DNA from: Candidatus Hydrogenedentales bacterium
GTDB taxonomy: Bacteria > Hydrogenedentota > Hydrogenedentia > Hydrogenedentales > SLHB01
Assembly (NCBI GenBank): GCA_041859045.1
Contig: JBHELB010000051.1
Span: 1 to 59,106, forward strand
DNA length: 59,106 nucleotides
Reading direction: 5' to 3'
Positions 8,044 to 8,145 of this stretch are shown piece after piece. The notes under the pieces were generated by a model. It was not told where the DNA came from, did not search any database, and saw only the letters and a program-made list of their open reading frames with translations. Made by a program: the position numbers and the translations under genes. Each line of letters starts with the position of its first letter. The stretch's first letter is position 1.

Positions 8044-8145
8044 AGCATTTTAAAAATGGCGTGGCCGTTTTCCGAGGTCTATCCCGCGCCATTTCTTGAA
8101 ATGCGTAGCGCCAAGTGGCTACGGCTTTGCTTAACCTGCGCTAGG
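8044..8145 (+). repeat. Structured intergenic repeat, copy A (paired arms 8045-8061 and 8087-8104, then conserved 'tagcgccaagYggctacgg...ctagg' tail)
   Basis: Homologous to 31419-31525. The arms 'gcattttaaaaatggcg' and 'cgccatttcttgaaatgc' are inverted repeats. It sits ~85 nt upstream of the GTG start at 8229. Confidence 0.5.

Follow-up and report, generated by a model that had tools for sequence, protein, structure and literature searches.

The DNA analyzed here (a stretch of 59,106 nt, called the window below) contains three copies of a small repeat. Copy A occupies positions 8040–8144 of the (+) strand (105 bp, CTA...CTAG), and copy B occupies 31418–31524 of the same strand (107 bp, CTA...CTAG). 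Copy C, which is diverged, runs from 28576 to 28471 on the (–) strand (106 bp, CTA...CGAG). The first two were delimited using alignments and nhmmer (E=4e-29 for copy A), and the third was located by low-stringency blastn and nhmmer. A first-pass annotation had described A and B; both are real, but their ends, given there as 8044–8145 and 31419–31525, had to be shifted to those above, and copy C on the minus strand had been missed, leaving the count of two incomplete.

Copy A lies in a divergent intergenic region between a gene at 7337–7819 (–), whose strand was set by the GC3 pattern and a Logan gene call, and a gene at 8229–9326 (+). The product of the latter is an orphan without a Pfam match; it has an N-terminal hydrophobic segment and is predicted to be membrane-anchored. 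To the left, positions 1–7300 are low in G+C (45–49%, compared to ~60% elsewhere), and copy A is near this boundary. The low-G+C stretch includes a 1345-aa DUF2357/cold-shock-domain protein (813–4850) and, on the (–) strand, a fusion of a barnase-type ribonuclease with a phage Mu F-like domain (6177–6809), followed by two barstar-like immunity genes (5822–6154 and 5395–5724). This stretch looks like an acquired toxin/defence island. To the right, a RiPP-like biosynthetic cluster (9503–17721, +) begins directly downstream of the A-adjacent gene. In order, it features a 73-aa ORF (9503–9724, a Logan gene call), a PqqD-like protein (9910–10260), a B12-binding radical SAM protein (to 11561), a PqqD-radical SAM-SPASM enzyme (11574–13103), an ABC ATPase, an FtsX permease, a CAAX/Rce1-like protease (14975–15835), and an ABC exporter (15718–17721).

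Copy B is likewise in a divergent intergenic region, between a hybrid histidine kinase (28587–31052, –) and an orphan gene (31570–32100, +) encoding 176 aa. The 176-aa protein matched only itself in the protein collection. The best relatives of the kinase were 54–63% identical over part of its length, and its relatives, at 42–63% identity, bear names of Hydrogenedentes and Desulfuromonadales MAGs; the protein collection contains no close relative of this lineage. The orphan gene converges with two genes (32101–32977, –), one encoding a STAS anti-sigma antagonist and the other an RsbW-like kinase; a plus-strand ORF at 32453–33004 in the mechanical ORF list is spurious. A sigma-54 activator gene follows at 33189–34547 (+), and then a gene (34610–38044, –) whose 1144-aa product is a thermolysin (M4) peptidase of the secreted type. 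This peptidase has an FTP propeptide motif, and its C-terminus bears a dockerin domain, a combination that is unusual outside clostridial genomes.

Copy C is situated between the histidine kinase and the first gene of a complete-looking type II secretion operon (17769–28325, –) that encodes gspG-like pseudopilins, GspK, a PilN-like protein, secretin, GspE, and GspF. Its start is 10 nt past the stop codon of the kinase gene, whose last base is 28587, and 145 nt separate its end from the gspG-like start (28325). Within the GspF gene, the AT-rich palindrome of the element matched positions 18383–18400 weakly, on either strand (nhmmer E of about 1–4), probably by chance.

All three copies are thus intergenic, and each is oriented as its nearest downstream gene. 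Copies A and B had been placed 45–85 nt upstream of plus-strand genes, and the measured distances agree: the start codon at 8229 is 84 nt beyond the end of A (8144), and the one at 31570 is 45 nt beyond that of B (31524). Both of these copies lie between divergent genes and would face a gene whichever way they pointed; the agreement in orientation is therefore weak evidence. The downstream genes are mutually unrelated: an orphan with the RiPP-like radical-SAM cluster (A), the 176-aa orphan (B), and the gspG-like pseudopilin operon (C). No transposase or RAYT gene was found in the window.

Alignment of A and B from end to end, as had been proposed, was reproduced with both blastn and MAFFT; over the full length of the element, blastn gave 67% identity across 113 nt (E=5e-8). 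Pairwise blastn identities among the three copies were about 65–73%. With all heuristics turned off, nhmmer returned exactly three full-length copies (E of about 1e-29 each). Only complete three-module units were present in the window, and no partial elements, solitary modules, or doublets were detected. In the three-way alignment, similarity sets in at CTA and ceases at CTAG (CGAG in copy C). Frame-shifting indels separate the copies, and therefore no common reading frame is conserved; six-frame translation of the element gave no protein match at E≤10.

The internal organization is simple. As read from the alignment, one module of ~25 nt occurs three times per element and is composed of an AT-rich near-palindrome (GCRTTTTCAAAAAYS) followed by CGTRGCC. 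The left and middle modules are direct repeats, and the right-end copy is inverted. In copy A, the left arm (module 1, with the AT-rich palindrome CATTTTAAAAATG) is at 8045–8061 (+), its partner, the middle arm (module 2), is at 8087–8104 (+), and the right terminal inverted repeat (TIR), which holds the inverted module 3, is at 8116–8144 (+). The arms of copy A, GCATTTTAAAAATGGCG and CGCCATTTCTTGAAATGC, form 17 pairs, including one G·U, plus one bulged C (judged by folding and by reading). In copy B, the left TIR (31418–31447, +) contains the left arm (31421–31436), the middle arm (31471–31486, +) is its perfect complement (16 bp, 100%), and the right TIR occupies 31495–31524 (+). A long arm pair had been noticed in both copies and is indeed there.

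The TIRs of copy B are 30 nt each, are 70% complementary, and are located at the very ends of the element. When the left end was compared to the reverse complement of the right end, copy B scored 10 against a shuffle maximum of 7, and copy A scored 7 (shuffles: mean 2.0, maximum 7); the comparison was not significant for copy C, in which the terminal repeat has decayed. The consensus of the left TIR is CTAnnGCRTTTTCAAAAAnnnCGTRGCCRC, ~30 nt and imperfect, with its complement at the right, and the outer part of the repeat recurs once more inside the element, which yields the long left/middle hairpin. Copy A is missing the cytosine of TTTTCAAAAA at 8051/8052 that is present in the other two copies. 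The tail TAGCGCCAAGYGGCTACGG (19 nt) occurs exactly twice in the window, compared to an expectation of 0.05, and is 18/19 identical between A and B; it is far better kept than the arms, and its description as highly conserved was accurate. It includes a small hairpin in copy A (CGTAGC-gccaagtg-GCTACG, 8104–8123, +) that is followed by a T-rich run.

The flanks of all copies read C-TA...TA-G (GA-G at the right of copy C), which is compatible with duplication of TA in a CTAG target. However, CTA and TAG are reverse complements of one another, and they may be no more than the outermost bases of the inverted repeats. Two other accounts of the ends were rejected. A 3-bp GCG duplication at copy A has no matching flanks at B and C, and nested insertion of a 70-bp hairpin element is contradicted by a loop/tail inverted repeat that spans the supposed boundary.

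Bacterial MITEs are small (<~300 bp) and noncoding. The size of the element (105–107 bp, noncoding), its TA termini, its TIRs, its long stem-loops, and its intergenic position match those of published bacterial MITEs such as RUP and Correia (PMC2229807). We therefore favor, with somewhat better than even confidence, the reading that it is a MITE-type non-autonomous dispersed repeat that was inserted with TA/CTAG flanks by a transposase acting in trans. RUP is a 107-bp bacterial MITE, and the similarity of its TIRs to those of IS630-Spn1, along with its TA targets, suggests mobilization by the transposase of that insertion sequence (PMC2229807). Like the present element (copy B is also 107 bp), RUP is noncoding and intergenic, with TIRs and TA termini or targets (PMC2229807). 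Recent copies of RUP are highly identical (PMC2229807), and near-identical copies are predicted here from contig breaks (see below). The two have no sequence similarity, the contiguous TIR pairing in RUP is 9 bp (PMC2229807) compared to imperfect TIRs of ~30 nt here, and in the present element, unlike in RUP, the arm is repeated once more internally. The Correia (NEMIS) elements of Neisseria are MITEs of ~100–150 bp with ~24-bp TIRs and TA ends, which form a long stem-loop when transcribed and often lie just upstream or downstream of genes (PMC2229807). Their sequences, too, are unrelated to that of the element described here. Correia elements carry an IHF site and have characterized promoter and RNase III effects.

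The main rival of the MITE reading is a REP/BIME/REPIN-like element, i.e. three short palindromic modules copied as single-stranded hairpins by a RAYT (an IS200/IS605-like tyrosine transposase) and not by a DDE enzyme; such an element may serve as a protein-binding or mRNA-stabilizing site. A mosaic of one ~25-nt module (imperfect palindrome plus CGTRGC), used three times with the third inverted, would suit this, as would the extragenic location and the capacity to form hairpins. The GTAGC/GCTAC motif is also reminiscent of the GTAG at the head of REPs; GGTAGCGCCGGGCC... is a published REP (PMC2817692). Known REPs are extragenic, short imperfect palindromes found in both orientations and adjoined by a GTAG-like motif, and REP doublets and BIMEs of ~90–110 bp have been described (PMC2817692). 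However, a REP is a 20–40-nt G+C-rich imperfect palindrome preceded by GTAG or GTGG, and the present element does not conform: the palindrome core (TTTTCAAAAA) is AT-rich, and GTAG is 3′ of it, whereas the listed REPs have it on the 5′ side (PMC2817692). The basic BIME module has an inverted REP between two direct ones (PMC2817692); here, the inverted module is at the end of a fixed three-module unit. The window has neither solitary modules or doublets nor a RAYT gene, and the CTA/TAG ends with 30-nt TIRs are better suited to cut-and-paste transposition. We consider a REP-like origin unlikely.

The pairings within the element had been taken as a sign of selection on structure, and they were examined in the three-way alignment. 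The compensatory change that had been reported, from A-T in copy A to G-C in copy B (alignment columns 18/75), is real, and two more were found, so that 3 of the 27 pairs show double-sided changes; 86% of the helix cells are standard pairs. The support that these changes lend to structural selection is weak, however, as 26–35 of 500 column shuffles matched the observed covariation (only three sequences were available). A second helix, the loop/tail pairing that had been called pseudoknot-like, comprises 9 Watson-Crick pairs in copy B and is kept via three G·U pairs in copy A, but 4 of the 9 are lost in copy C, and none of its pairs has a double-sided change. Copy C also has 3 mismatches in helix 1. 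Such losses are expected for an old selfish copy. By our own count, the helices include 7 G·U and 3 A·C cells, a slight sense-strand lean that is not significant. The sense-strand folds had z values of –3.1/–3.5, compared to –1.5/–1.8 for the antisense; a second set of sense-strand folds gave –3.6 (A), –4.0 (B), and –1.7 (C). The G·U lean and the more stable sense folds leave room for selection on a transcript.

The minimum-free-energy (MFE) fold of copy A has a left/middle hairpin and a 3′ hairpin, whereas that of copy B pairs the two ends of the element; therefore, no single structure is conserved. The supposed pseudoknot partners, the loop CGTRGCCG and the tail YGGCTACG, are the inner part of the TIR, and every pairing that had been noticed follows from a module that is repeated in both orientations. 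Comparison against Rfam, which the first-pass annotation had called for, yielded no family at gathering score; at E≤10, the only matches, all of which fell far short of the threshold, were miRNA-like hairpins and two weak fragments of riboswitch models. Scans for sigma-70 promoters and terminators were uninformative either way, with only one weak terminator-like hairpin found, in the tail of copy A (by pattern scan only).

These data bear on the possibility that the element is a cis-regulatory RNA, in which a sense-strand hairpin would form, the loop CGTRGCCG would compete with the basal CGTAGC for the tail GCTACG, and a switch between the pseudoknot and a small U-tailed hairpin would attenuate the downstream gene. 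Such an RNA might derive from, or ride on, a mobile repeat. Copies A and B do resemble riboswitch or attenuator leaders in being located in putative 5′ leaders and in having alternative pairings and a small hairpin with a U-rich run, which in the tail of copy A was flagged as terminator-like. The shared orientation of the copies with their downstream genes, the three double-sided changes, the G·U pairs on the sense strand, the sense-fold z values (reaching –3.6 for A and –4.0 for B), and the retention of 18 of the 19 tail positions, far above that of the arms, may be counted in its favor. Against it, the orientations carry little weight for the reason given above, the covariation is reached by 5–7% of shuffles, and the alternative pairings are automatic. 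The downstream genes are functionally unrelated, A and B do not share an MFE fold, Rfam offers no match, and copy C, in which helix 2 is lost, follows a stop codon by 10 nt (i.e., it is 3′ of a gene). Leaders would also not be expected to have near-identical twins with differing flanks, as predicted below. The riboswitch or protein-binding leader that had been suggested at first is thus disfavored, and we regard a cis-regulatory RNA as doubtful, a little more so than the REP-like alternative. A combined version, a “portable attenuator” in which a mobile repeat carrying a functional RNA switch with mutually exclusive folds has spread in front of unrelated operons, appears improbable.

Evidence on copy number came from Logan contigs, in which assembly is carried out at k=31 and each 31-mer is kept once per accession (PMC12424806). 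A contig that starts in unique flanking DNA thus extends no further than k–1=30 nt into a repeated sequence. The genes of the window were also found on Logan assemblies of several SRA runs, and in up to 8 samples, the contigs break at fixed positions within A and B. To the right of copy B, the six contigs with a known start (out of 8) began at 31496 (four, one of them 8.6 kb long), 31495 (one), or 31503 (one), and to the left, the contig shown, one of two with the kinase gene, ended at 31447. The breaks at copy B are exactly 30 nt inside each end as defined independently by alignment. At copy A, all six of the right-hand contigs shown start at 8105, and all five of the left-hand contigs shown end at 8081. 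These positions imply another sequence that is identical to A over 8052–8134 and different at 8051 and 8135; the first of these differences, 8051, is the site of the cytosine in TTTTCAAAAA that copy A alone lacks. Copy C was read through by a Logan contig with 0 mismatches over 5861 nt. The copies seen directly thus number three, at about 65–73% identity, and near-identical ones are deduced from the contig breaks; on this basis, A and B are each quite likely to have near-identical twins at other loci. Since the similarity to the twins would end at the element boundaries, it points to a recently duplicating unit, not to a segmental duplication. In the same SRA runs, contigs of a paralogous histidine-kinase locus (L024 and L026, G+C 0.60) share an identical start base in two samples, which suggests a different repeat boundary in the same community; the 9 kb of these contigs include no copy of the present element.

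Local polymorphism could also generate contig breaks: strain variation or inversion of the inner segment at A and B would suffice, and the genome would then have only three copies. At B, a perfect 9-bp inverted repeat (CGTAGCCGC/GCGGCTACG) has its inner edges at the breaks (31447 and 31495), and because of this repeat, polymorphism or inversion at B would give the same breaks. No flanking inverted repeat is found at the A breaks (8081 and 8105), however, and the inversion of a 47-bp segment is implausible as a mechanism. By contrast, the sharing of 30-mers with other copies explains the breaks at both A and B, including the one at A that corresponds to its private 1-nt deletion (8051/8052). 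We judge local polymorphism to have a low probability.

The least probable reading, and one that we hold to be very improbable, invokes a DNA-level site, at which a single dimeric transcription factor would bind three arrayed operators (palindromes of the GTTTTnnAAAAC type) or a sigma-54 promoter (in copy A, TGGCTAcggctTTGCT) would be accompanied by upstream activator sites: each arm is near-palindromic (CATTTT-A-AAAATG, CATTTC-TT-GAAATG), the window has the sigma-54 activator gene at 33189–34547, and copy A matches TGGCAC-N5-TTGCW with 2 mismatches, but an operator array needs neither end-to-end conservation over 105 bp nor sharp CTA...TAG ends and would not yield the observed contig breaks, and the sigma-54 version was rejected because the GG-N10-GC (–24/–12) elements occur only in A (the corresponding bases are CGGC...TTAC in B and CCCC...TTAT in C) and the matches in the window are not above chance (19 found, 29 expected).

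Relatives of the element were sought in several collections. The exact core TAGCGCCAAGNGGCTACGG was found in 3 stretches among GTDB species-representative genomes and in 8 among JGI metagenomes; none of these has the palindrome, and they were rejected as chance matches. An exact-core scan of viral contigs returned 0 matches, and blastn against plasmids and phages revealed no similar DNA. Since neither the GTDB nor the JGI scan yielded a relative, the family cannot be shown to be widespread. A paralogue locus from the same samples as the window genes and with the same G+C (P0054, 0.60) has no copy in its 9 kb. Three others (P0051, P0101, and P0086) were considered as paralogue loci of the same organism and rejected as belonging to other genomes. 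The ~105–107-bp repeat family appears to be undescribed so far, although the kind of element is well known.

Of the initial suggestions, the miniature repeat (MITE/REP-like), which had been offered only as a fallback, fits best: the ends are sharp, the TIRs are ~30 nt long, three copies are present in 59 kb, and the contigs break at the element. On the MITE-type reading, a DDE transposase encoded elsewhere in the genome would bind both ends of the element and move it into intergenic TA/CTAG sites. The candidate enzyme would be IS630/Tc1-mariner-like or IS5-like, inserting at TA within CTAG. IS630 inserts into CTAG with duplication of TA; IS5-type elements, which have YTAR targets, are an alternative. 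We infer that TA is the target-site duplication and that such a transposase mobilizes the element. After insertion, the copies would drift and decay, copy C being the putative example here. The apparent RNA structure would be a by-product of a module that occurs twice directly and once inverted. A copy that is co-transcribed with its neighbor would fold, and it may incidentally stabilize, process, or attenuate the adjoining mRNA; any influence of the element on neighboring expression is proposed on these grounds.

The element is of an ordinary kind, and the interest of the family is low as long as no regulatory role has come to light. Nonetheless, recognition of the repeat as a probable MITE removes a false riboswitch or sRNA lead, and it illustrates how apparent compensatory changes and “pseudoknots” can arise from a module that is repeated in both orientations within a small mobile repeat. 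The element would also explain why short-read assemblies of this uncultured lineage break at these intergenic sites, and it would be a marker for a probably active transposase that targets TA/CTAG. If the copies influence the adjacent RiPP or secretion operons, they would constitute a further example of MITE-borne regulation. The portable-attenuator reading, if true, would mean that a RiPP cluster, a type II secretion operon, and an orphan gene have been wired to one signal by transposition.
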